A stretch of 64,000 bases of DNA from Octopus sinensis (Eukaryota). The notes beneath the pieces are model-generated. The model did no database searches, was not told where the DNA came from, and saw only the letters and a list, made by a program, of their open reading frames with translations. Shown here one piece after another: positions 9,551-61,282 of the stretch. Numbering within the stretch: the stretch's first letter is position 1; each line of letters starts with the position of its first letter. The stretch covers positions 65,038,001 to 65,102,000 of the forward strand of contig NC_043000.1 in assembly GCF_006345805.1 (NCBI RefSeq), written 5' to 3'. Position numbers and translations under genes: made by a program.

Positions 9551-9917
9551 GGCAGCGAGCTGGTCGAAACGTTAGCACGTCGGGCGAAATGCTTACCGGT
9601 ATTTCGTCTGGCGCTACGTTCTGAGTTCAAATTCCGCCGAGGTCGACTTTGTCGTTCATCCTTTCGGGGTCAATGAAATAAGTACCAGTTACGCACTGGG
9701 GTCGATATAATCAACTTAATTCGTTTGTCTGTCCTTGTTTGTCCCTTCTGTGTTTAGCCCCTTGTGTGTAGTATTTCGTCCGTCTTCATGTTCTGAGTTC
9801 AAATTCTGCCGAGGTCGACTTTGCCGTTCATCCTTTCGAGGTAAATAAAATAGGTATCTGCCAAGTACTGGAGTCCCCCAAATTTCAGGCCTTGTGCCTA
9901 TAGCAGAAAGGATTATT
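9551..9917 (+). mobile_element. tRNA-derived SINE, family B (internal duplication)
   Basis: Head ggcagcgagctgg...gttagcac, B-box-like gagttcaaattcc, core gtcgactttg..ttcatcctttcggggtc; core repeated at 9770-9850. Confidence 0.8.
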
Positions 9918-19001: not shown

Positions 19002-20141
19002 TTTGGCTGCCAATTTCCGAAAATTTAAAGTTTATTGAAAATTTTAAAATTTGATACATTAATGTAGTTTTCCAAATTGAATGTCAGTAGATATTTCACC
19101 TTTTCCAGAATTAAAAAAAAAAAGTTATAGACGTCTAAAGTTTGATAATTTTCACTCAATCAGAAAAATAGGATTTGGAAGTTGTCATTTTGTGTGACAG
19201 CACAAACAAATGAAATACAACTGTAAACAAATGAAATACTTTTCTTTTTTCCTTTTCTACTCTAGCACGAAATTTTTGGGGAGGGGGCAGTCGCTTAGAT
19301 CGACTCCGGTACGCAACTGGTACTTAATTTATCGACCCCGAAAGGATGAAAGGCAAAGTCGACCTAGGCTGAATTTGAACTCAGAACGTAACGGCAGACG
19401 AAATACCTATTTCTATTTCTTTACTACCCACAAGGGGCTAAACACAGAGAGGACAAACAAGGACACACAAACGGATTAAGTCGATTATATCGACCCCAGT
19501 GCGTAACTGGTACTTATTTAATCGACCCCGAAAGGATGAAAGGCATAGTCGACCTAGGTGGAATTTGAACTCAGAACGTAACGGCAGACGAAATACCGCT
19601 ATGCATTTCGCCCGGTGTGCTGATGTTTCTGCCAGCTCGCTGCCTGTAAACAAACGAAATACTGTTGGAATTCTGCTTTACACACACCATATAACCCCTC
19701 GTAAATTTTTCATATTTTGGATTTTTCAGAAATTTTTTGCAAATTTGTTTTCTATGCTCGGGAATTCATATGATTATTCAAAACCCAAAATAAAAAAAAT
19801 TGGTGGGTACGTCATTTAAGGCCTATTTAGCTGTAATTTTTAGCACATCTCGCCACTACTTCAATGAATAGAATATACTTGTCAACACATACTTTCTCGC
19901 AGACAAAAGAGTTCTCATGCTTAGCCTTGTTACTACGGAAAAGGGAATGGATGTATCTTTGGCTTACGATTGGCTAAAATTACCCAAAATTTCCTCACTT
20001 AAAAAGCTAATAACTCTTTATTCATTGATTTATGGCGAAAATGAATTTCAAGGCATTGATTAGCATATAAAACTATATCATTACACCGAATATGAAATCA
20101 ATTGGAACAGAAATTGAAGAGTTTGAAAATTGGCAGCCAAA
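19002..20141. mobile_element. Non-autonomous DNA transposon with a nested SINE
   Basis: TIRs tttggctgccaattt / aaattggcagccaaa. Confidence 0.7.
19241..19643 (-). mobile_element. SINE family B (dimeric core) with target-site duplication
   Basis: Flanked by ctgtaaacaaatgaaatact (19221) and ctgtaaacaaacgaaatact (19644). Confidence 0.85.
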
Positions 20142-20846
20142 AATTATAATATTTATGAAAGACATAAAAGTTTGCTACTCCAGTTAATGTTGCTGGGTAT
20201 TTTGAGTCACTAGAACATTGGAATAACAAGTGAACGAGATAACCTCTATATGGTCTCTCAACATGCTAAAAACAACAACCAAAATTATCGCAAGTCATAT
20301 CTAGCTGAGGAAGATGGAAGGGCACATTCGGTAATGTAACATGATATAAACTACGAGTGAAAAGACAGCATGTCTGCCGCCAGAATGCTCTTGTTCATAG
20401 CTCTTCTCGATCAAAGCTGATATAGGCCTAAATAACAACTGTAACTTAAAATGAACTTTAAACAGCAATAGCTGTTGAAACAGTTTAGCGATGAATATTT
20501 TATCGTCTACATTACTGGAGGAAAATTATGTAGATTTATTTTCTTTGTAAATATAAACTAAATTATTTTTGTTAAACTGATGCGAAATATAATGTGCATA
20601 AGCATGTATGTATGCATGTATGCATGTATGCATGTAGGTATGTATGTATGTATGTATGCATGTATGTATGTTTGCATGTATGTATGTATGTATGTATGTA
20701 TGTATGTATGTATGCATGCATTCATGTATGTATGTATGCATGCATGCATGTTTGTATGTATGTTTGTAGGTATGTGTGCAAATATATATATATATGTGTG
20801 TGTGTGTGTGCGTCTGTGTGTGTGCAAATATATATATATATATATA

Positions 20847-21060
20847 TAACATAAGGGACTAAAGCCATCTGAATATGGCTAGGGACAGGCAGGGTGGTGG
20901 GGGGTTACTGTTGCATTTAGCCCCAGGCGAACATCAACGTCGCCAGGCAACAGTAACCCCCCCACCACCCTGCCCTGTCCCTAGCCATATTCAGATGGCT
21001 TTAGTCCCTTATGTTATGGAGCAGTTACTGTCTATATCTCATTTAGAGAATTATTATTGC
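20847..21060 (+). mobile_element. Hairpin pLTR-like element, family P1 (short)
   Basis: Arms 20847-20914 and 20947-21017 are reverse complements; unpaired tail ggagcagttactg...ttattgc; (TA)n on both sides. Confidence 0.75.
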
Positions 21061-21924: not shown

Positions 21925-22280
21925 ATTTATTTCTTTATTGCCCACAAGGGGCTAAACATAGAAGGAACAGACAAGGACGAACGAAGGGATTAAGTCGATT
22001 ACATCGACCCCAGTGCGTAACTGGTGCTTATTTAATCGACCCCCGAAAGGATGAAAGGCAAAGTTGACCCCGGCGGAATGTAAACTCAGAACATGATGGT
22101 CGAAAATGTTAACACAAAGGACAAAATACTTAGCGGCATTTTTTTAGGCTTTACGTTCTTGAGTTCAAATACTGCCAAAGTCGACTTTGTTTTTATCCTC
22201 TCAGAGTCGATAAAACAAGTATCAGTCAAGTACTGGGGTCAATGAAATCGACTTCCCCTTCTCCTCAAAATTGTTTGCCT
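21925..22280. mobile_element. Two SINE family B fragments in opposite orientation
   Basis: Minus copy ~21925-22092; plus copy ~22105-22280. Confidence 0.7.
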
Positions 22281-22406
22281 AGTGTCAACGCGTTCCTACG
22301 TTGCAGTCTGTTGTGTTCGAGAGTTACACTTACGCAAAGGAGGAAGGTAATAACTTGAATAGAGTATACATACACATATATATATATATGTGTGTGTATA
22401 TATATG

Positions 22407-22537: not shown

Positions 22538-22542
<5 letters not shown>

Positions 22543-22816
22543 AGGGGCATCAGCCATCTGAATGTGGCTAGGACAGGGCAGGGTGGTGGGGAGTGTTACT
22601 GATGCATTTAGCCCCAGGCGATCATCGACGTCACCAGGAGGGCTGACACCACCGAGATGGTGTCAGCCCTCCTGGTGACGTCGATGATCGCCTGGGGCTA
22701 AATGCATCGTAACACCCCCCACACCCTGCCCTGTCCCTAGCCACATTCAGATGGCTGATGCCCCTTATGTTATAGAGCAGTTACTGTTTATATCTCGTTT
22801 AGAGATTTATTATTGC

Positions 22817-22817: not shown

Positions 22818-22874
<57 letters not shown>

Positions 22875-22887
22875 ATATTATTTATAT

Positions 22888-23730
22888 TATATTGAGGGTA
22901 CTACTATTCGTAGATACCATCACGCTAAGAGGGACCAATGCGGTCAAAACTACTAAAAATAAACAAAATTTTACCGAATGCAAAACTTCAAAACACATCA
23001 TTTTAAAAAAGAATTCAGTTACATATCACATGTGATTTCGCATTTAATGCAGAATATGCATTTCATGTTCATCAGTGCAACAAACTCAAGAAATATAAGA
23101 GAAAAACATAACATTAGAAGCTCGATAGCCAACCGTAGAATTCGTCGTATTTACGGATTTTTTCTCTTACGAGGTTTTTCACGCTGACTACTGATAATTT
23201 CTTTTAAAGATTTTATCCTCAATTGTTAATTTATATTTTTCACCGGAATAGTTCAATACTGAATTTTTATTCCGACTAGACAATTTGTTACCGAAATGCA
23301 TTGCGAATAAGCCCGCCATTTTCATAGATATGTAAAGATAAACATTCGTACATGCTACGACGAATTCTACGGTTGGCTATCGAGCTTGTAATGTTATGCT
23401 TTTCTCTTATATTTCTTGAGTTTGTTGCACTGATGAACATGAAATGCATATTCTGCATTAAATGCGAAATTACATGTGATATGTAACTGAATTCTTTTTT
23501 AAAATGATGTTTTTTGAAGTTTTGCATTCGGTAAAATTTTGTTTATTTTTAGTAGTTTTGACCGCATTGGTCCCTCTTAGCGTGATGGTATCTACGAATA
23601 GTAGTACCCTCAAATATATAATAATGAATATTTTCAAAGAGGAAGAATTTACGAATTTTTTCTCTTACGAGGTTTTTCACGCTGACTACTGATAATTCTT
23701 TTAAAGATTTTATCCTCAATTGTTAATGTG
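22888..23730 (+). mobile_element. Retrozyme/Penelope-like element, family P2 (inverted arm plus >1 monomer of ~500 bp)
   Basis: 22890-23145 is the reverse complement of 23357-23614; 23149-23228 repeats directly at 23648-23726; hammerhead in both arms; (TA)n flanks. Confidence 0.8.
23424..23487 (+). ncRNA. Type-I hammerhead ribozyme, AUA triplet (mirror copy 23018-23081 minus)
   Basis: gttgca-CTGATGA-acat...atgc-GAAAT-tacatgtg-ATA-tgtaac; 6-bp stem I; stem III is the palindrome ATCACATGTGAT in the mirror copy. Confidence 0.8.
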
Positions 23731-23788
<58 letters not shown>

Positions 23789-23834
23789 TATGTATGTATA
23801 TATATATATAATATATATATATATATATAAATAA

Positions 23835-23871
<37 letters not shown>

Positions 23872-23882
23872 ATATAATATAT

Positions 23883-23934
<52 letters not shown>

Positions 23935-23963
23935 GTATGTATATATATATATATGTATATATA

Positions 23964-25588
23964 TCAAAATGAAAACATGATGCCAAGGATTCAGCGGTAC
24001 AGTGTTTCGGGCCTTTATTAGACGGTTTTATAACAATGCATAATGTGTGTCTATGGCCTTCTTCAGCCGCGTACAATTACCACCTCAAGGACATGTATTA
24101 CATTATAAGTTTTACGTTGGGGAATCAAATCCTCATAGTCGCGTACGACAGAGTGGGGCACCAACACAAAAACTCCCCATGTGTGTGAGTGTGGGCGTGA
24201 GTGTAGGTGTATGCATATCTTTGTCCATAAGCATAGGGATTTACTTTCTCATGTGTGTGAGTGTGTCTGTATGTGCGCAGGTACGTGTATGTGTATACGT
24301 ACGTATGCGCGTCAGTTCTTGTACCCAACTACATGCACCTTTTTCCGTATGTATGTGTATATTGAGATATTTATGTATGTGCACATATACGTATATAAGT
24401 GGGTAGACGGGCGGGCTTTACATATGTATGCGTGAGTATGTATTTGTGTGTATACGAGTGCGTATGCAGAGGCAGGTTATTGTATTTGCTTTTATGTATT
24501 TAGCTGGTGCAAGCTTAGGTATCCGTACGTAGCGGGACGTATGTATATGCGTACCCCTGTCGGTATTTTTACACGAGAGTACGTATGTATATATACGTGT
24601 GGATGTGTATACGTGGGTATGTGTATGTGTATATGTGTATATGTATGCATGCGTGTACGTATGTACATGTTGACCACTAGTAACAAAGACAATTTACGAG
24701 GAAGTAGATAAACTGTTTAGCCACAAACCAGAAAACCAGACAACCGAAATTGACCATATACTTGATCTCCAGACTTTCTAGTTGATTTATGACACCCGCC
24801 ATTACGCTCGTAGGCTTCAACAACCGGAATATGTCATCTTTCTGACCACCATGTTAGTTCTTAACCCCTTTATATCCCTTATCCTTATTATTTTTTTTCT
24901 TTCGTCCTCAGTTCTCGCTTTATCTTTATCCCTATTTATTTATATTACCATGTTTTTTTTCACGTCTGTGTGTATTTAAATATTTATATATTTATATATT
25001 GATTTATATATTTATATACTTAGATACTTTTTTTTATATTCTTATATATTTCTTTGTATTCTTATAACTTTTTTTATATTCTTATATATTTTTAATATTC
25101 TTATATCTTTTTTATATATTTTTAAAATTTTTACTCTTTTGTAATTTTTTACGCTTTTACTACCATTTGCACCCACCACCCTCCCTCTTTGTGATCCCTA
25201 ACTCACTAAAGATTCAACCCTCCCCAACCCCTTCCCTCTCTATCTCAACATCCAAACTTCCTCATACTACATCGAGTGAAAGACGGGATGGACGCTTCGT
25301 TTTTGTGTTGGTGCCCCACTCTGTCGTACGCGATATGAAGATTTGCATCCCCAACGTAAAACTTATAATGTAATACATGTCCTTGAAGTAGTAATTGTAC
25401 GCGGCTGAAGAAGGCCATAGACACACATTATGCATTGTTATAAAACCGTCTAATAAAGGCCCGAAACACATGTACCGCTGAATCCTTGGCATCATGTTTT
25501 CATTTTGATTAATATACTCTATCACCTACACCACTAAATGGTATATACAGGTGCTTACAATTATCAAGTATTCACCCTGAATTTTTGT
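23964..25588 (+). mobile_element. Penelope-like element, family P3, with inverted pLTRs
   Basis: 23964-24172 is the reverse complement of 25299-25508; ~80-nt unpaired 3' tail; (TA)n flanks; hammerheads in both arms. Confidence 0.8.
25401..25478 (+). ncRNA. Type-I hammerhead ribozyme, GUA triplet (mirror copy 23994-24070 minus)
   Basis: gcgg-CTGAAGA-aggcc...ggccc-GAAAC-acat-GTA-ccgc; palindrome ACATGT. Confidence 0.8.
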
Positions 25589-25606
25589 ATATATATATAT
25601 ATATAT

Positions 25607-26483
25607 AAAATTAAATTTAGGTAAAAATTGATATTTATCCATTAGAACCAGTGGTCTAGCATATTAAAAGAAAGAATCCGAAGATTAAAATATTTATATG
25701 TACCAATTAAGGACTGAACACGAAAAGTGGACAGTCAACATGCTAGATATAGACGTCAAATCGCCAATCTCCACAAAAAGTCTATGTTCTCAGATCAAAC
25801 TCAACACAAAACCAAAGCAATAAACAAGTGAAAAATATACGAAATAAATATTTACCCATGTACTAAATTTAGTTTCGGCTGTTATTTTCCGCAAGGAAAA
25901 GTGCAGCCATCATCAGCATGGTCCCATATAAAATGAAATTTGCTGTACTAAATGCCAACACGATACCGAAATATCGCGTGCATGGAGTACGGATTCGTTC
26001 TTTTAATATGCTAGACCACTGGTTCTAATTGATAAATATCAATTTTTACCCTAAATTTAATTTTATATAAATATTTGTTCTCTAACCGATAAATTAACTG
26101 CTGCTAACTATTAGCTGCAGGCTAGTTTTCTCGGGTCTCATCGCGCCAAAATAAAGACATTTGAAATATATATTTCAAATGTAATAGGCCGTACTCCATG
26201 CACGCGATATTTCGGTATCGTGTTGGCATTTAGTACAGCAAATTACATTTTATATGGGACCATGCTGATGATGGCTGCACTTTTCCTTGCGGAAAATAAC
26301 AGCCGAAACTAAATTTAGTACATGGGTAAATATTTATTTCGTATATTTTTCACTTGTTTATTGCTTTGGTTTTGTGTTGAGTTTGATCTGAGAACATAGA
26401 CTTTTTGTGGAGAATGGCGATTTGACGTCTATATCTAGCATGTTGACTGTCCACTTTTCGTGTTCAGTCCTTAATTGGTACAT
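25607..26483 (+). mobile_element. Retrozyme-like element, family P4 (circularly permuted ~510-nt unit plus inverted arm)
   Basis: 25607-25990 is antisense to 25991-26483, but reads across the end-to-start junction of the sense unit; same family at 38929-40540. Confidence 0.8.
26260..26325 (+). ncRNA. Type-I hammerhead ribozyme, GUA triplet (mirror copy 25856-25921 minus)
   Basis: ccatg-CTGATGA-t-ggctg...cagcc-GAAAC-taaattta-GTA-catgg; palindromic ACTAAATTTAGT; all core bases present. Confidence 0.88.
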
Positions 26484-26488
26484 ATATA

Positions 26489-26534
<46 letters not shown>

Positions 26535-26553
26535 ATATATATATATATATATA

Positions 26554-26605
<52 letters not shown>

Positions 26606-26621
26606 GTGTATATATATATAT

Positions 26622-27531
<910 letters not shown>

Positions 27532-29788: not shown

Positions 29789-30600
29789 CTAGTAGCACCC
29801 ATGTAAATTCCACGGTCAACACACTTGAAAACATTACGTAACGTCTTTCAAAACGTTCTTTTGATATCTTGCCATCTAATGAAAACTGCTTTTAAACATA
29901 ACTGAAATGAATACGTATGACAAATATGATGTACTTTATAGTTTAAGGAAATAAAAGATGAATTAGATAAAACTTATTCATATATATTTAGTAAATGTTT
30001 ATTATTTACGGTCTTTATTACATAGTTATAAAGTAAATGAATAAATACAAACGATAGTTTATATGATTATTATATGTATATAAAAAGAACAGGCACTTAC
30101 TGAATAAGATACAAACAATCTACATTACAAACAGGCCTGTACGAAGTCTATGTGACATACATACAAAAACAAAAATACAAAACCAATTTAAATGTGTCTG
30201 AAATAGGCATTGTATGTGATCATAGAAAATACTTAACAAACTGTATGAACTGAATGTAATACGAATGACATACATATACATGAGATAAATAAAATACTAG
30301 ATTTACTCTCTCAGCATTTAAAAAATTTTTATTTAGAAAGTTTTTAAGAATTTTACCTTCTTGTTTGTCTTGTCCGTTGGTCTCAACTACTCTTACAACC
30401 ACATCAGATAATTTTCTGGCCCTAGAAAATGCCACATATAATTGCTTATGGCTGAACACAGGAGGTGGTAAACATATTCCAATTTTGTTAAATGTTTGTT
30501 CTTGTGCCTTATTTACTGTCATAGAGTAAGGCAGCCTTACAGTTCTGAAATTAAAGGAAAACTGGAAACATTTGGAGTCAGTTTGATGTGAGGTTATTAG
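29789..30600 (-). pseudogene. Helitron 3' remnant with a PIF1-type helicase fragment
   Basis: [16 protein letters not shown]...[15 protein letters not shown] matches the PIF1/Helitron motifs TINKAQGQT and VFSHGQLYVAxSR; minus-strand hairpin plus CTAG|T at 29789-29818. Confidence 0.85.
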
Positions 30601-31135
30601 GAAGCGTATTTCTTCTTGTTACGTGTTATTGAAGTGGATCCAATGCAATTATTGTAGAGGCAGACACATCTTACATATAGTACATGCTTGCTTCTAATTA
30701 TTTCTTTTTCTGAAAAATAACCGCTTTCATTTATTCTCCTTTAAGCTCATGTCGTCTATCGTTGCCCATATTTTACAAAGAAATGTTTCGATTGAGCATC
30801 AGAGAATTAATTGCACCAAAGCGCATGTGTTAAGTGAAGGAACTTTAAAAACTAAAAATATATAAACAAACTACACCTTCGCTGTCCAACCACCACCAAG
30901 GCCCAATAAAAGTTATTTACCAATTGAGATTATTTTCATTTCTTTTCATTTCACTTTATGTCAGCAACATATCTATTTGTATATCAATTAATATATCTTT
31001 CTATTTGCATGACTTGATATATCGGTAGACTCATCTACCTACCTACCTACCTACTTACCTACCTACCTACCTACCTACCTACCTGCCTACCTGCCTGCCT
31101 GCCTGCTTGTCTGCCAGTCTGTCTGCCTGTCTGCC

Positions 31136-32199: not shown

Positions 32200-32410
32200 C
32201 CTTCTACTATAGGCACAAAGCCTGAAATTTTGTGAGACAGGGGTGCTAGTCGATTACATCAACCCCAGTGCTCATCTGGTGCTTATTTTATCGATCTCGA
32301 AACGATGAAAGGCGAAATCGACCTCGGTGAAATTTGAACTGAGAACATAAAGATGGACGAAATGCTGTTAAGCATTTTTGTCCGGAGTCCTAAAGATTCT
32401 GCTAGCTCAC
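32200..32410 (-). mobile_element. SINE family B
   Basis: gatgaaaggcgaaatcgacctcggtgaaatttgaact...gattctgctagctc. Confidence 0.7.
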
Positions 32411-35049: not shown

Positions 35050-35872
35050 GAGATTTGTTGTGTAATGCCGGAACAATGCAAGAAGAAAAGAAAAGAAAAC
35101 AAAGATGCAGGTCTACCTTGTATGTCTTCATTTCAGGGTTATGACACCTTCGAAAAACGACGGATGGAAAAGTCATTGCTCAGATGTGTGGGGGATGAAA
35201 GAGGAAGAGGGAGGAATAGGAAGGTAACAAGCGCAGACTGGTTACTATAGCAACACCAGTTGGCACATGTCACCTTTCTTCCCCCTCTCCCTTTCTCTTT
35301 CCTCTCCCACACGTCTGAGCAACGAACTTTTCCATCCCTCGCTTTTCCAAATGTCCTGAAGAAGTGGATATAGTCTCAAGATATAGAAATATTAGCAGTA
35401 TCGCCCGGCGTTGCTCGGGTTTGTTTCGACCCTTTAGAATTAGAATTTTTGAAAAGTAAAAATTTTGCATTATGTAGCTTGTTATTCTCTTTAAGTGAAC
35501 ATTTTTCTGGTTGAAATATACCGAAAAATGGCGACACGGCAGTGAAAAAATCGTAAAAAATAGGGATTTTCATAGAAAAAAAGCACCTTTTTTATGTAAA
35601 TAATTTTTGGTGTTAACATGGTCAGATTTAAATTTTTTCTTCTACGGAAGGAAGAGCAAGCCTTCTTCTGTCATACTCTCAATTTTGGTCAACTTGTGCC
35701 GCAGGGTCTCGGAGGAAATAGTGTTAGTTAAAGGCTACCAAACCTGCCATACACAGACAACTTCAGCTTTATATAGAGAGATAAGGTAAAACAGCAGTTT
35801 TGTTTTGTTTACTTTTTCTTTTGTGCTATACTTTGTACCTTCTCGCGTTGTTCCGACGGTACACAACAAATC

Positions 35873-35922: not shown

Positions 35923-36034
35923 TACCGAACCTCTCATCCGGAATTCAGAAATCCGGCTGTTTTTGAAACTGGCTAGCTTTGAATTTCATATACGTAAAAT
36001 ATAGGATAGCGAATTTTTTTTTAGAAATTTCATT

Positions 36035-36275
36035 GCTAGTGGCCTAGCATGTATACAAAGTCAATAGGCAACATATTCTCCATATAAAATTAGTGTACAT
36101 TAAACACAAAATTTTTTCATTTGCTGCTCTTAAATTTAGTATTGGTCGTTTTGACTGCTCCTTCTAGCATGTAAGGCTGCCTGTTAAGGGTCGTCTCTTT
36201 TGTGTTTAAATGTACACTAATTTTATATGGAGAATATGTAATCTATTTACTTTTTATACATGCTAGGCCACTGGC
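36035..36275. repeat. Inverted repeat / MITE-like foldback
   Basis: 36035-36110 is the reverse complement of 36198-36275. Confidence 0.7.
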
Positions 36276-36587
36276 CAAGATGTTTGTAAAAGTTTGAAGC
36301 GCACCGAGATATAACTTGCAGCCCATTAGGATGTCACACCGTTTGAGAACTGTTTACAAAGGATTTTTTTTCTTTAACTGAAGTTCTTAAAAACAAAGTC
36401 ACTGGTGTGATGAGAGAAGGGAAAAATGAAGAGAAGTGTTAGCGACTTCTTGTACTCATTTCCACCAACTCAAATTTTTGGAAAGAAAAAGAAAGGAGAA
36501 TCATTGGTGAATGGAATCAATAAAACCTTTCCATACAAAATGTTTTGAACGGGGATTCTGTAACTACTATTATTATAATTCAGGAAA

Positions 36588-36775
36588 AGGCGGCGAGTTG
36601 GCAGAGTCGTTAGTGGAAATTCGTCCGTCTTTACGTTTAGAGTTCAAATTCCGCCGAAGTCGACTTTGCCTTTCTTCCTTTCGATGTCGATAAAATAAGT
36701 ACCAGTCGAGCACCGAAGTTGATGTCATCGATTCCCCCCTCCCCCGAAATTGCTGGCCTTGTGCCCAAATTCCAA
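36588..36775 (+). mobile_element. SINE family B
   Basis: ggcggcgagttggcagagtcgttag...gagttcaaattccgccgaagtcgactttgcc. Confidence 0.75.
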
Positions 36776-38836: not shown

Positions 38837-38928
38837 TATATATACATACATACATACATTACATACATTTAACATACATACATACTACATACACATAATA
38901 TACATTATATTATATATATATTATATAT

Positions 38929-40535
38929 ATACCAATTAAGGACTGAACACGAAAAGTGGACAGTCAACATGCTAGATATAGACGTCAAATCGCCATTCAC
39001 CACGAAGATTCTGTTCTCAGATCAAACTCAGCACCAAAACCATAGCAATAAATCAAGTGAAAAATATACGAAATTAAAAAATTACCCTGTATAATTAGTT
39101 ATCGGATGTTATTTTCGCAAGGAAAACTGCAGCCATCACAGCTGGTCCGTTAAATGCAATTTGCTGGACTAGATGCAAACACGATACGAAATATCGCGTG
39201 CATGGAGTTCAGCCTATTAATTTGAATATATCTTTCAAATGCCTTTACACGCGTTGAGACCCGAGAAACTAGCCTGCAGCTAATAATTAGCAGCGTCAAT
39301 TTATCGGTTAGGAACATATTTATATAAAATTAATTAAGGGTAGAAATTGATATTTATCAATTAAGACCAGTGGTCTAGCATATTAAAAAAGAATCCGAAG
39401 ATTAAAATATTTATATATACCAATTAAGGACTGAACACGAAAAGTGGACAGTCAACATGGCTAGATATAGACGTCAAATCGCCATTCACCACAAAAGATT
39501 ATGTTCTCAGATCAACTCAGCACAAAAAACATAGCAATAAACAAGTGAAAAATATACGAAATAAAATATTACCCATGTACTAATTAGTTTCGCTGTTATT
39601 TTCCGCAAGGACAAAAACCTGCAGCCATCATCAGCATGGTCACGCGCGCCAAAGTAAAGGCATTTGAAAGATATATTCAAATGTAATAGGCTGAATCCAG
39701 CACGCGATATTTCGGTATCGTGTTTGCATCTTAGTCCAGCAAATTGCATTTCTAACGGACCATGCTGATGATGAAACTAATTAGACATGGGTAATATTTT
39801 ATTTCGTAATTTTTCACTTGTTTATGCTATGGTTGTGCTGATTTGATCTGAGAACATAATCTTTGGGTTTGACATGGCGATTTGACCGTCTATATCTAGC
39901 ATGTTGATGTCCATTTTCGTGTTCACTTAATTGGTATATATAAATATTTTAATATTCGGATTCTTTTAATATGCTAGACCACATGGTCTTAATTGATAAA
40001 TATCAATTTCTAACCTTAATTAATTTTATATAAATAAATATGTCTCTAACCGATAAATTGACTGCTGCTAATTATTGCTGCAGGCTAGTTTTCTCGGGTC
40101 TCAACGCGCCAAGTAACGGCATTTGAAAGATATATCAAATGTAATAGGCTGAACTCCATGCACGCGATATTTCGGTATCGTGTTTGGCATCTAGTCCAGC
40201 AAATTGCATTTATAACGGACCATGCTGATGATGGCTGCAGTTTTCCTTGCGGAAAATAACAGCGAAACTAATTCGTACATGGGTAATATTTTATTTCGTA
40301 TATTTTTCACTTGTTTATTGCTATGGTTTGTGCTTGCTGAGTTTGATTGAGAACATAATCTTTTTGTGAAGTGTGGCGATGATTCCATACGTCTATATCT
40401 AGAGCATGTTGAGTGTCCACTTTTGTGTGTCAGTCCTTAATTGGTATATATAAATATTTAATCTTCGGATTCTTTTTTAATATGCTAGACCACTGGTCTT
40501 AATTGATAAATATCAATTTCTACCTTAATTAATTT

Positions 40536-40540
<5 letters not shown>
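38929..40540. mobile_element. Family P4 array: ~1.5 antisense and ~1.8 sense head-to-tail units, four hammerhead positions
   Basis: accaattaaggactgaacac at 38931 and 39420; ttggtatatataaatat at 39931 and 40441 (510-bp period); inversion near 39642; motifs at 39573-39639 (-), 40220-40282 (+), stem-II-deleted 39760-39790 (+), degenerate ~39085-39146 (-). Confidence 0.8.
40220..40282 (+). ncRNA. Type-I hammerhead ribozyme (family P4)
   Basis: ccatg-CTGATGA-tggctg...cagc-GAAAC-taattc-GTA-catgg. Confidence 0.75.
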
Positions 40541-40609
<69 letters not shown>

Positions 40610-46542: not shown

Positions 46543-47036
46543 CACACACACACACACACTACAGTGTTGTTAATGAATCTCTATAATATCGATTTATAGG
46601 TGGTTGAATTCTTTCTTAAACTTTTGTGTCTTAGAAACTTTAAATATGGTCATTGCTATCTTTTTTTTTTTTAATAAAGTCAAATATTCATACTACTTTT
46701 TTACAAAGTTAATCTCCATGTCTCAGCACTGAAATAAAAACAAAAAGAGTTTAATAGAGATAATATTTAGTTTGAATTATTGTAGTTTAAAGAGGAAACA
46801 TAGGCATAATTCTGGAAAGTGGGTTAAGGAAAATATTTATAAAATTATTTTTTGTTAAACGATATATGAGGTTATTGAGTCATTAGTAAAAGTGAAAGTT
46901 ACAGGATACCACGTTGGTTATAGAGTGTTGATTAGTAAAAGCAATAGCCTTATTTTGCGATAAATCTACCCAGAAGACGCTTAATCTTTTCTAGGGTAGA
47001 ACATTTTATTTTGCATTGCAATATTCAAGACTTATA

Positions 47037-47205
47037 GGCGGCGAGCTGGCAGAATCGTGAGCACGCCGGGCAAAATACTTAGCCGCATTTCGTCCACCTT
47101 TACGTACTGGGTTCAAATTCCGTCGAGGTCGATAAAATAAGTACTAGTTAAGTACTGGGGACGATGTAATAAACTTATATACCCCGAAATTGCTGGCCTT
47201 GTACC
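47037..47205 (+). mobile_element. SINE family B
   Basis: ggcggcgagctggcagaatcgtgagcacgccgggc. Confidence 0.75.
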
Positions 47206-47374: not shown

Positions 47375-48005
47375 TGATAGCCGTTCCATCAACATACACA
47401 TTACACAATTACACACCACAATTCCTCCGTTGATGAGCCCTCAGATGACTTTTAAAACCAACTGCTGACTGACGGGGTCTAAAACACAAGTGACAGATAT
47501 TCAAGTTTCTTCTACATCTTTGCCCATTCTGAAGGAGTGCTTTTGTGAACTGGCATATGTCTTTTAAGTTCAGATAAGATTTGTCACATATGACACAAGT
47601 CATAAGAGGCGGTTGGGGTTTTATATTATTATCTACCTGTGCATTTCGATTTTCGTGTGACTTCATATGATTCACGTATCCTACTTTTGACAACAGAACA
47701 CGATCACACGTGATACATATCCAATATTCACAGCTGATTCCAGTTCCAATTGTTCCTTTCCATCTTTTCCTCTCATGCCTTGCAACCAGTCATAGCAACA
47801 CTACTCCACTTGTTCCAATCCAGAGCATCAGTTTCCCAATCACTTTTGATCACATCTAGTTTCTTCAGGTTTTCCTTCACACAATCTTTATACCTTTTCC
47901 TCGGCTTATGTTGTGGTCACTTACCAAAGCTGAGCTCACCGTAAAGAAGACGCTTTGGCAATCGCTCATTTTTCATCTAATAACATGTCCAGCCTATCTC
48001 ATTTG
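47375..48005 (-). pseudogene. RTE (BovB-like) LINE 3' end with C2H2 zinc fingers
   Basis: Minus RLPKRLLYGELSFGK*PQHKPRKRYKDCVKENLK, then Cys/His motifs (NHMKSH, CVICDK, CHLC...SHLRAH). Confidence 0.8.
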
Positions 48006-50647: not shown

Positions 50648-51026
50648 TAATATATATTAATATATATATATTATATATAATATATATATATTATATATAT
50701 ATAATATGTATATATATATATAGTGTGTGTTGTGTTATATATATATATATATATATCTATTTATAGATATATATATATACACACACACCAACAACCACAC
50801 ACACCACCACACCACACACACACACATATCTATTTATATATGCCTACATATATATTTCTTACATTCTTTATATCTTTACTATTTGTATAAATATTAGTAT
50901 ATGCTAAGTTCTAAGTTTATGTGCAACGGAGATCTACTACGATGATAACTAGAATTTGTTATACATACATACATACATTCATATAGAAAATACATACATA
51001 CATACATACATACATACATACATACA

Positions 51027-51097
<71 letters not shown>

Positions 51098-51099
<2 letters not shown>

Positions 51100-51505
51100 C
51101 AATAATAATTCTCTAAATGAGATATAGACAGTAACTGCTCCATAACATAAGGGACTAAAGCCATCTGAATATGGCTAGGGACAGGGCAGGGTGGTGGGGT
51201 GTTATTGTTGCATTTAGCCCCGGCGAACATCAACGTCGCCAGATAGGCTTGACACCATCACGGCGTCCTTTATCCTGCAAAGGAGATAATTCCCCGATGA
51301 AGCGGAAACACACACGGACCTAGTTTTCAAGGTATTGCCTATCATCAACGTGTGGTAGGCCCCCGCTTCCTTGCAGGATAAAGGACGCCGTGATGGTGTC
51401 AACCTATCTGCGACGTTGATGTTCGCCTGGGGCTAAATGCAACAGTAACACCCCCACCACCCTGCCCTGTCCATAGCCATATTCAGATGGCTTTAGTCCC
51501 TTATG

Positions 51506-51508
<3 letters not shown>
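51098..51508 (-). mobile_element. Hairpin pLTR-like element, family P1 (long), hammerhead in the loop
   Basis: Arms ~51143-51283 / 51369-51508; tail 51098-51142; same family as 20847 and 22538. Confidence 0.8.
51311..51354 (-). ncRNA. Minimal hammerhead motif (two substitutions)
   Basis: Minus: cacacg-TTGATGA-t-agg-caata-cct-t-GAAAA-ctag-GTC-cgtgtg; perfect 6-bp stem I; CTAG palindrome loop. Confidence 0.7.
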
Positions 51509-51552
<44 letters not shown>

Positions 51553-51730
51553 ATAAAATACGTTTTCCGCGTATGTATGTGTGTGTGCATGTATAGAGAT
51601 GTATATATTAGCGTAGTGATGCGTACGTATATATGCGTGTGTATGTGCGTGTATGCGTAGACATATATATGTATATATGTGTGTTTGCATGTATATGCAC
51701 ACGTGCGTGTGAGTATGTATATAGATATAT

Positions 51731-51761
<31 letters not shown>

Positions 51762-51855
51762 ATATATATATATACATAAATATATATATATATATACATA
51801 ATATATATATATATATGTATATGTATATGTGTGTCTGTGTGTGTGTGTGTATGTA

Positions 51856-51898
<43 letters not shown>

Positions 51899-56609: not shown

Positions 56610-56954
56610 TGTGACAATTAGTTGGTTGTCATAATAAAATTCAGAGTTTCGGATGCCGGGGCTGAAGTCTGCTTCGGCATCTCATCAGTTATTAAGACAA
56701 ACCAATGGTCCAATAGTATAGAAGTCGTTGACTGGTTTAAAGCCATTAGGAAAAAAAGAAAGCGAGATTTATCACAATTTGAGGTTTATCTTAATAACTG
56801 ATGAGATGCCGGAGCAGACTTCAGCACCGGCATCCGCAACTCTGAGTGTTATATTGACAACCAACTAACTGTCACATATATTTATAGATAAATTCCTCTA
56901 TTTGTATAATATCGAGGTCTCATTCATTGTTTTGTTGTCATATTGTTATTATTA

Positions 56955-56987: not shown

Positions 56988-57374
56988 CACACACACACAT
57001 ATATGTATATATGTATGTATGTACGTATGTATGTATGTATGTATGTATGTATGTATGTATGTATGTATGTATGTATGTATGTATGTATGTATGTATGTAT
57101 GTATATCCGTGTTTGTATGTCTGTGTATAGAAGAATATATTAATCAATGAAATTCCAACTAAGTCTGGTCTTCACGTTTCATTATTTGCAATTTTTACAA
57201 TTTTGCAATATTGAAATGAACTAGTATTTTTATGCGTTTCGCAATCATTAGGTTTATGTAATAACAGCCGTGTTCCCAAATTTATTATATCATCATTATT
57301 GTATAAGTTTATATATTGTTCTATTTTGTATGTATTTATATATAAACACACACACATATATATATACACACATG

Positions 57375-57412
<38 letters not shown>

Positions 57413-57420
57413 TATATATA

Positions 57421-57698
57421 TTTAAAAAAGGAGATGTGGAACACGAGTTGTGATATATAAAAAGGAATGAAGGAAATGCTGACAAAATAATTTAAGTAAT
57501 TTAAGTAATTTAATTAGGTGAAAGTTCTTTTTACCGGTTGCGCATTTGTTATGCTTATCAAAATATATTTTTTAAAGAGAGATTCTTTAAAAAATATATT
57601 TTGATAAGCATAACAAATGCGCAACCGGTAAAAAGAACTTTCACCTAATTAAATTACTTAAATTACTTAAATTATTTTGTCAGCATTTTCTTCATTTC

Positions 57699-57705
<7 letters not shown>
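57421..57705. mobile_element. Near-perfect palindrome (family P8) with AT-shifted hammerhead motif in both arms
   Basis: ~57455-57577 pairs with ~57585-57705; TTGATAA-gcat-aacaa-atgc-GCAAC-cg-GTA at 57601-57630; ~33-nt unpaired tail 57421-57453; (TA)n flanks. Confidence 0.7.
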
Positions 57706-57737
<32 letters not shown>

Positions 57738-57762
57738 CATGCCTACCTACATATATATATAT

Positions 57763-57800
<38 letters not shown>

Positions 57801-57814
57801 GCATATGCATATAT

Positions 57815-58010
57815 ATGTAGTCAATTCAAATAAACGAATAAAAACTGATAACACGAGGACGTGCATAAGAAATATATTAGCATTAGGATCGGCGATAGAA
57901 GAGAGTTTGACGTTTCGAGCATAGCTCTTTGTCGGAAAGGAAAAAGGGAAAAGTCCAAAGAGGGAAAAGAAATCGCAAAACGACACACGTCTAGTTACAT
58001 TGCTGAAATA
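57815..58010 (-). mobile_element. Short pLTR-like element (P6-like) with minimal hammerhead
   Basis: Minus ttt-CCGACAA-a-gagc-tat-gctc-GAAAC-GTC-aaa at 57906-57938. Confidence 0.6.
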
Positions 58011-60407: not shown

Positions 60408-61282
60408 AAGCCAATTTGCAGTTGAAAATGCACTTAAATTTGAAAAACTTGTAATTGTCTTAAAATAAATTTATTTGCATATATACCAAACTAGTTTCAA
60501 CAATATTTTTTGTTTATCAATAGTAAAAAATTTAGAATTATGAATTAGAAAAACATGTTTAAATGTTTTAATGTTGACAAGTTTAAATGTTCATAATAAA
60601 CAAATTTAGAATTATGAATTAAGAAAACATGTTTAAAAGTGTCAACGTTGACAAGTTTAAGTGTTCATAGCAGTCAATAATATAAAAACTGTTGATCAAC
60701 TTGTTTAAATTTACAAAATTCAGCGAAAGTTCCTGCACACGACGGAAAGAGAATCACAGAAACTGTAACCAAATTCCCCTTTTTTTACTATCTTCATTTC
60801 TCCCTTGTTTTTCTCCTTCTTAATTCAGTATGACTGAAACTTTGATTATATTCATTTCTTGATGACTACTACTACTAACACTATAAATGTTTCAGTCGTA
60901 CTGAATTAAGAGGGAGAAAAACAAGGGAGAAATGAAGATAGTAAAAAAAAAAGGGGAATTTGGTTTACAGTTTCTGTGATTCTCTTTCCGTCGTGTGCAG
61001 GAACTTTCGCTGAATTTTGTGAATTTAAATAAGTTGATCAACAGTTTTTATATTATTGACCGTTATGAACATTTAAACTTGTCAACATTGAAACTTTTAA
61101 ACATGTTTTTCTAATTCATAATTCTAATTTTTTACTATTGATAAACAAAAAATATTGTTGAAACTAGTTTGGTATATATGCAAATAAATTTACAAGAAAA
61201 TTTTTCAAATTTAGGTGTATTTTCAACAACAAATTTGCCTATATTTTTTCTTGCGTGGAAATACACCACGTCTTTTGTTTTA
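60408..61282 (+). mobile_element. Long foldback element (family P9) with AT-shifted hammerhead motif in both arms
   Basis: 60408-60840 pairs with 60889-61240; ~40-nt tail then (TA)n; tacta-TTGATAA-acaa-aaaata-ttgt-t-GAAAC-ta-GTT-tggta at 61133-61174, mirror 60484-60525. Confidence 0.7.

Follow-up and report, generated by a model that had tools for sequence, protein, structure and literature searches.

Insertions of Penelope-like elements (PLEs), as set out in the available sections of PMC8557442, are partial tandems with an inverted 5′-truncated copy at the 5′ end and an optional tail, and they are biased towards microsatellites. According to the accessible part of PMC11167929, the PLE protein cuts AT-rich DNA on both strands and inserts uncleaved RNA with a mutated hammerhead; it starts reverse transcription at two internal sites of the RNA, between which the tail lies. 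The hammerheads of PLEs have a palindromic helix III, are predicted to fold as dimers, and occur as opposite-strand pairs 100–700 bp apart (available text of PMC4209133). Animal retrozymes are defined as tandem units and have been proposed to be PLE derivatives (PMC7229834; 10.64898/2026.07.22.740005, both in part). Li et al. call a retrozyme active if it has two units on the same strand whose ribozyme is complete (available text of 10.64898/2026.07.22.740005). Natural hammerheads with an AUA triplet have been described in ELVd (+), sCYDV-RPV (+), and csc RNA (−), and in ELVd the AUA triplet is active but the slowest of the four tested (PMC1636495, in part).

The window analysed here is the whole stretch of 64,000 nucleotides of Octopus sinensis contig NC_043000.1. 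It contains an 842-nt insert of a repeat family, P2, embedded in a (TA)n microsatellite. The insert consists of a leftward inverted arm followed by a rightward segment of 585 nt, which corresponds to 1.17 turns of a 498-nt unit. Its features are:

22820..22891, no strand: left (TA)n microsatellite, the likely insertion target (from the sequence)
22892..23149, − strand: inverted 5′-truncated arm, the outer end of which is the 3′ end called site A (reverse complement of 23356-23613, 254/258 matches)
23149..23236, + strand: first copy of the repeated block R, which starts at the inversion junction (sequence comparison)
23237..23613, + strand: non-coding body of the P2 unit, up to site A at 23613 (from the sequence; covered by family contigs)
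23614..23646, + strand: AT-rich linker from site A to R (thin cover by family contigs, hence variable or rare in the family)
23637..23666, + strand: predicted 13-bp hairpin with a UACG loop (23650-23653) that straddles the boundary between linker and R (it contains the inversion junction)
23647..23733, + strand: second copy of R, which terminates at the 3′ end called site B (from the sequence; family contigs leave at the equivalent base 23236)
23734..23964, no strand: right (TA)n microsatellite (from the sequence; 23725-23970 is 97% A+T)

The two copies of R lie on both sides of the hammerhead, as the first-pass annotation of the window had noticed, and agree at 95.5% over 88 columns. The repeat is real, and its period has been revised from about 499 to 498 nt because the second copy starts at 23647. 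The unit is non-coding and has a GC content of 31%. There is no ORF of at least 100 aa inside it, and the two ORFs that overlap the unit edges run out of the (TA)n sequence. A 22-codon ORF at 23625-23693 (+) starts in the linker and enters R; it is possibly a vestige and was given no weight. No second P2 copy was found elsewhere in the 64-kb window. The locus had been described as a terminally redundant unit, which is correct for the repeated end block; as a whole, the locus is arranged as a partial tandem of PLE type to which an inverted arm is attached. The 258-nt inverted arm and the hammerhead on the minus strand had been overlooked.

The two arms of the inversion are separated by 206 nt and differ by four substitutions and no indels over 258 nt. 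At three of the four differences the left arm agrees with the majority of the family; the fourth position has no listed family variant, which means that here it is the + copy that agrees with the family. Differences of this kind, without indels and with a left arm that mostly matches the family majority, are better explained by genuine decay following a single insertion than by a fold-back artefact. Many palindromic stretches occur in the window, as might be expected if the inverted arm were produced by assembly or library preparation and the hammerhead were a chance motif in AT-rich DNA. However, the substitutions and the spacer between the arms make such an origin very improbable. The P2 insert is genuine and young, and the family to which it belongs is large.

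On each side the insert terminates in a 3′ end of the unit, on the left in site A (equivalent to 23613) and on the right in site B (23733), 120 nt apart. The inverted arm begins at site A, and the + segment reaches as far as the start of R, which lies 34 nt downstream of that site. The last 10 nt of the linker pair with R within the 13-bp hairpin. No target-site duplication is visible at the insert in (TA)n. The direct repeats of about 85 nt that flank the + segment could be taken for true terminal repeats of a miniature LTR element or of an LTR-type retrozyme. However, R neither begins with TG nor ends with CA, and the inverted arm and the second 3′ end would be left unexplained. In addition, plant-type LTR retrozymes carry a type III ribozyme within the LTR, as described in the available part of 10.64898/2026.07.22.740005, but the P2 ribozyme belongs to type I and is not part of R. 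It is hard to credit that R belongs to an element of this type.

The insert contains one predicted hammerhead ribozyme on each strand, with the cores 355 nt apart:

23424..23487, + strand: predicted type I hammerhead, cut after 23481 (structure scan; family variants)
23018..23081, − strand: second predicted type I hammerhead, predicted cut after 23024, CUGAUGA at 23075 (structure scan; perfect 12-nt palindrome in stem III)

Both copies have the core elements CUGANGA, GAAA, and NUH. Helices I, II, and III surround the core; helix I is open, and stem II has a predicted energy of −6.8 kcal/mol. In the + copy, the six base pairs of stem I (23424-23429 with 23482-23487) are followed by CUGAUGA (23430-23436), stem II (23437-23465) with an A·C at its base, GAAA (23466-23469), the palindromic stem III (23469-23480), and AUA (23479-23481). 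An alternative GAAA at 23441 was rejected by inspection, as it leaves no room for stem II. The 12-nt palindrome reported previously for stem III is perfect in the − copy and in the family, and imperfect in the + copy, which has a G·U pair. Position 10.1-11.1 is an A·C mismatch instead of G-C in both local hammerheads.

The reported hammerhead with the GAAAU/AUA combination is borne out by the structure scan. The strict scan identifies two sites in the window (23430 on the + strand and 23075 on the − strand) compared with 0.05 on average per shuffled window (100 shuffles), and the relaxed scan identifies five compared with 0.23 in 60 shuffles. Rfam detects no hammerhead at the gathering score, nor at E ≤ 10 over 22850-26700, where the only matches are microsatellite-driven ones to miRNAs and snoRNAs. 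The lack of an Rfam match would suit a chance motif, but the motif is rare in shuffled sequence, and the family variants described below avoid its constrained positions.

The comparison with type I hammerheads of PLEs (Cervera & de la Peña 2014, PMC4209133, available text) shows the same core, palindrome, predicted dimer, and opposite-strand pairs. The P2 hammerhead differs in having A10.1·C11.1 in place of the highly conserved, although not universal, G-C pair, in its long stem II with an internal loop, and in the absence of a PLE ORF. The palindromic 15.2-16.2 pair is a general feature of PLE hammerheads, and the hammerhead Saccoglossus (2) has a 10-nt palindrome (same source). The AUA/GAAAU core, which had been singled out as unusual, is not: U15.2-A16.2 occurs in 15 of the 56 published animal hammerheads and AUA in two of them, from Schmidtea and D. 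willistoni, by our own count from a machine-read Fig. S3 of PMC4209133, in which the GAAA column is displaced. The AUA core is already in print and adds nothing new. The triplet is also shared with the viroid and satellite hammerheads; those belong to infectious plant RNAs, whereas P2 is a genomic repeat (PMC1636495, in part).

The minimum free energy structure of the P2 hammerhead homodimer is the double-hammerhead fold with unpaired cores, and the probability of the active monomer fold is below 0.5%. The ribozyme is thus predicted to act as a dimer through its palindrome; the energy gained by dimerization is unexceptional, as 50 and 42 out of 300 shuffles gain as much. An A10.1·C11.1 mismatch would be expected to slow hammerhead cleavage. 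Together with the AUA triplet, this mismatch leads to the prediction that the P2 ribozyme is slow. Literature searches on the AUA cleavage triplet and on a G10.1/C11.1 mismatch gave no paper. Block R contains no ribozyme and the locus has a single hammerhead per strand; therefore, it cannot release a monomer. In read-through RNA of the locus, the arms are predicted to pair as a hairpin of 258 bp, in which neither core is exposed. With one ribozyme per strand and both of them hidden in this modelled hairpin, the copy is likely a dead end.

Of the 24 public sequencing runs listed, 20 runs from 12 studies contain the P2 unit, whole or in part; one of the runs may be the source of the window. Family contigs were aligned from four public runs (assembled contigs only), and the family is present in all four, with 1329, 736, 36, and 1 records. 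In three of the four runs, family contigs exit the unit at 23236 into simple repeats, including (AT)n in runs X1 (20) and X3 (13). The exit into (AT)n at this base identifies site B as a 3′ end of the family. Terminal redundancy had been proposed as a property of the family, and many copies indeed end where the repeated block ends. The sole run recorded as RNA contains one P2 contig of 250 nt with a depth of 2.2; the RNA labels of other runs are guesses. A search for the AUA-hammerhead pattern returned seven metagenome loci, which were discarded as chance matches because none aligns to the window and none folds fully. The same pattern has no match in viral contigs, and the R-block pattern has none in prokaryote genomes or viral contigs.

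Family variants, which are unphased and listed at a cutoff of 5%, comprise 25 substitutions, each at 5% or more. None of them affects U15.2, the AUA triplet, or any of the 12 invariant core positions, in agreement with the expectation that AUA is conserved across the family. Eight of the 25 fall within the ribozyme. One of these, 23471 T>C, is found in nearly all of the family depth; the change in the + copy is thus private, and the palindrome of the family is perfect. Position 23471 was left out of the subsequent test as private to the P2 locus. Six of the other seven variants lie on the 16 of 64 positions that are unconstrained (P = 6e-4; 2e-3 when all eight are counted). The seven include N7 and an A>G change that restores G10.1-C11.1. 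G at 10.1 accounts for about 8%, 14%, and 48% of the summed depth in X1, X3, and X4, respectively. The statement that covariation supports the fold was too strong, as U15.2-A16.2 departs from the textbook pair in one compensated instance, and the unphased variants of the family include no double change. It is the sparing of constrained positions by the variants, not the compensatory pair, that is evidence, at the level of sequence, for a P2 fold that is probably under selection.

The linker at 23614-23646 is thinly covered, with a depth of 167 in X3 compared with about 1e5 elsewhere, and a depth in X1 of about 12,000 over the 3′ part of the linker; these are summed contig depths, a weak measure that was not used for copy numbers. 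The greater depth near the 3′ ends and the thin linker, as judged by this measure, could indicate that the 498 nt of P2 are 3′-terminal pieces (pLTR and tail) derived from an autonomous PLE of greater length, and that the second R is a short piece by itself. Most PLE hammerheads are single and lie in truncated copies (available text of PMC4209133), in line with such pieces. However, three of the four runs contain family contigs in which the body follows R without a break, the end of the linker pairs with R in the 13-bp hairpin, and the neighbouring P4 family, identically laid out, makes true tandems of about 494-511 nt. The derivation from a long PLE is unlikely. No joint between the end and the start of the P2 unit is listed among the family contigs, which are short and cannot show the absence of tandems.

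The insert is best explained as a copy of a large non-coding hammerhead family that was likely copied into (TA)n by the enzyme of an autonomous PLE, a reading to which we assign a probability of about 0.78. The partial tandem (585 nt of a 498-nt unit), the inverted 5′-truncated copy at the 5′ end, the microsatellite target with (TA)n on both flanks, and the palindromic stem III are together the published signature of PLE insertions. Anatomy, target, the two 3′ ends, and the conserved core are all directly visible, and from them we infer mobilization in trans by a PLE. The locus resembles insertions of endonuclease-bearing PLEs (Penelope/Poseidon, Neptune, Naiad; non-autonomous Chlamys such as MRC1) in its partial tandem, inverted 5′-truncated copy, (TA)n target with no visible target-site duplication, and two 3′ ends, as far as the available parts of PMC8557442 and PMC11167929 describe them. 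It differs from them in lacking an ORF for reverse transcriptase (RT) and GIY-YIG endonuclease, and no RT or GIY-YIG domain was found in the 61 of 70 window ORFs that were scanned.

Under the PLE reading, a head-to-tail P2 master array would be transcribed, and the GIY-YIG endonuclease of the PLE would nick the AT-rich target on each strand. Two cDNAs would be made: one of 585 nt, with its start at site B, and one of 258 nt, for which site A in the unit upstream would be the start. The two cDNAs would then be joined head to head with the loss of the 33-nt linker, in the style of twin priming. The geometry of twin priming is known from L1. The template would have to be at least 876 nt long (258 + 33 + 585), or 1.76 units, with both ribozyme sites intact. 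As such a template spans both intact sites, cleavage would likely be unneeded for the insertion of P2. Both copies of R carry the minority allele G at 23186, where the family majority is A, as would be expected of one source. Among the observations that count against the PLE reading are the following: the near-contiguous twin-priming geometry, which fits the P2 locus, fails at the larger P4 locus, and the interval of 120 nt between sites A and B exceeds the 30-40 nt of the PLE tail.

It is possible, although the lesser prospect, that the template was instead a 498-nt circular RNA, formed by hammerhead cleavage and ligation according to the retrozyme model and reverse transcribed 1.17 times round. 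A circle would account for a copy that is longer than the unit and has permuted ends, and for the minority allele common to both R copies. Animal retrozymes do form circles (available text of PMC7229834), and the P2 unit folds somewhat better than its shuffles (z −2.8, 40 shuffles). However, the P2 core is suboptimal for such a cycle, with the slowest of the four triplets (PMC1636495, in part) and A·C at 10.1-11.1, and uncleaved RNA is inserted by the PLE protein in vitro (PMC11167929, in part). A linear multimer directly explains why the + segment ends 34 nt from the second start site.

Three further hammerhead families, all with inverted arms, are present in the window, and P4 shares short hairpins with P2:

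25588-26491 and 38915-40545, both strands: P4 family with GUA hammerheads, palindromic stem III, and inverted arms (structure scan, self-comparison)
23637-23666, 25675-25686, 39392-39403, and 40460-40471: hairpins with UNCG loops, located where the repeated block starts in P2 and P4
23955-24173 and 25299-25517: third hammerhead family, adjoining P2, with 220-nt inverted arms, CUGAAGA cores, and a 1.1-kb interior of decayed simple repeats
56610-56876: fourth, hammerhead-like family, a palindromic insertion between microsatellites with the core or stem III damaged in each arm

The P4 locus at 38915-40545 contains true head-to-tail tandems on both strands with a period of about 494-511 nt; the P4 copy near 39765 is without stem II. 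P2 had been regarded as independent of P4. The profile searches agree with this view, as they gave nothing better than E = 29 in either direction, whereas the spacing and the UNCG hairpin, which match, speak against it. The pairwise global scores of P2 have z-values of 3.9 with one P4 copy and 1.6 with the other (2.8 and 0.6 relative to local-block shuffles) and are a hint only. The distance from the end of R to the ribozyme is 194 nt in P2 and 196 nt in P4, and a UNCG-capped hairpin precedes site B by 84 and 80 nt, respectively. Two of the three inversion junctions in the window, that of P2 and one of the two of P4, lie inside the UNCG hairpin. The UNCG pattern has five matches compared with 0.23 expected; it was written after P2 and P4 had been seen and hence provides no test. 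The hairpin common to P2 and P4, having been found after the fact, is a lead only.

P2 and P4 could, tentatively, be two passengers of one PLE machine, which have lost their overall sequence likeness and kept a common cis-acting layout. In this layout, the far 3′ end is preceded at 80-84 nt by a UNCG hairpin and followed at 194-196 nt by a hammerhead, and there are two start sites of reverse transcription. The hairpin would then serve as a signal for the first cDNA to end and to be joined to the second. We consider this proposal doubtful. If it is true, thousands of copies would map how inverted PLE insertions are assembled in vivo from uncleaved multimeric RNA.

No partner ORF was recognised in the third hammerhead family (23955-25517). 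More palindromic insertions, most of which adjoin microsatellites, are located at 20846-21017, 22540-22770, 35149-35350, 36019-36291, 50738-51898, 57352-57818, and 60602-61131. Structure scans detected no hammerhead in these insertions, and those at 20846, 22540, and about 51026-51555 form one family. A dispersed SINE-like repeat family includes several inverted pairs (9551-9875, 19271-19654, 21928-22284, 32212-32408, 36611-36765, and 47032-47177). Weak Pfam matches below the curated cut-offs were obtained for 47412-47789 (−), a C2H2 zinc finger with E 7e-6, and for 30223-30618 (−), a UvrD-like helicase C-terminus with E 0.002 that could be a Helitron remnant.

P2 is filed as a non-autonomous hammerhead element of PLE type. 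It resembles metazoan non-LTR retrozymes in being non-coding, with less than 50% GC and a type I hammerhead, and its 498-nt unit is within the range of 51-972 of Li et al. (10.64898/2026.07.22.740005) but above the 150-450 of Cervera (PMC7229834), as given in the available parts of these sources. The ribozyme of P2 is of the palindromic PLE type, and the locus does not contain two units on the same strand whose ribozyme is complete, unlike the neighbouring P4 family, which does. For this reason, P2 is filed as a PLE-type element, although it works like the retrozymes and may prove to be one. No description of the P2 family was found in the literature, including the available parts of PMC6962438 and PMC6765202; Repbase or Dfam may include the family.

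Likely PLE passengers with a hammerhead are a kind already described in many animals, and the P2 family is one more of them. Its value lies in mechanism, namely how tandem and inverted PLE insertions form and what purpose the hammerhead serves, which are open questions according to the available sections of PMC8557442 and PMC11167929. The junction geometry of P2 and the hairpin shared with P4 are leads that merit a genome-wide check. Such a test would be feasible with families that are short and present in many copies, and that have two fixed 3′ ends and junctions that can be scored. The amplification of a family in which the AUA hammerhead is mostly closed by A·C is also relevant to the question of whether mobility requires cleavage.
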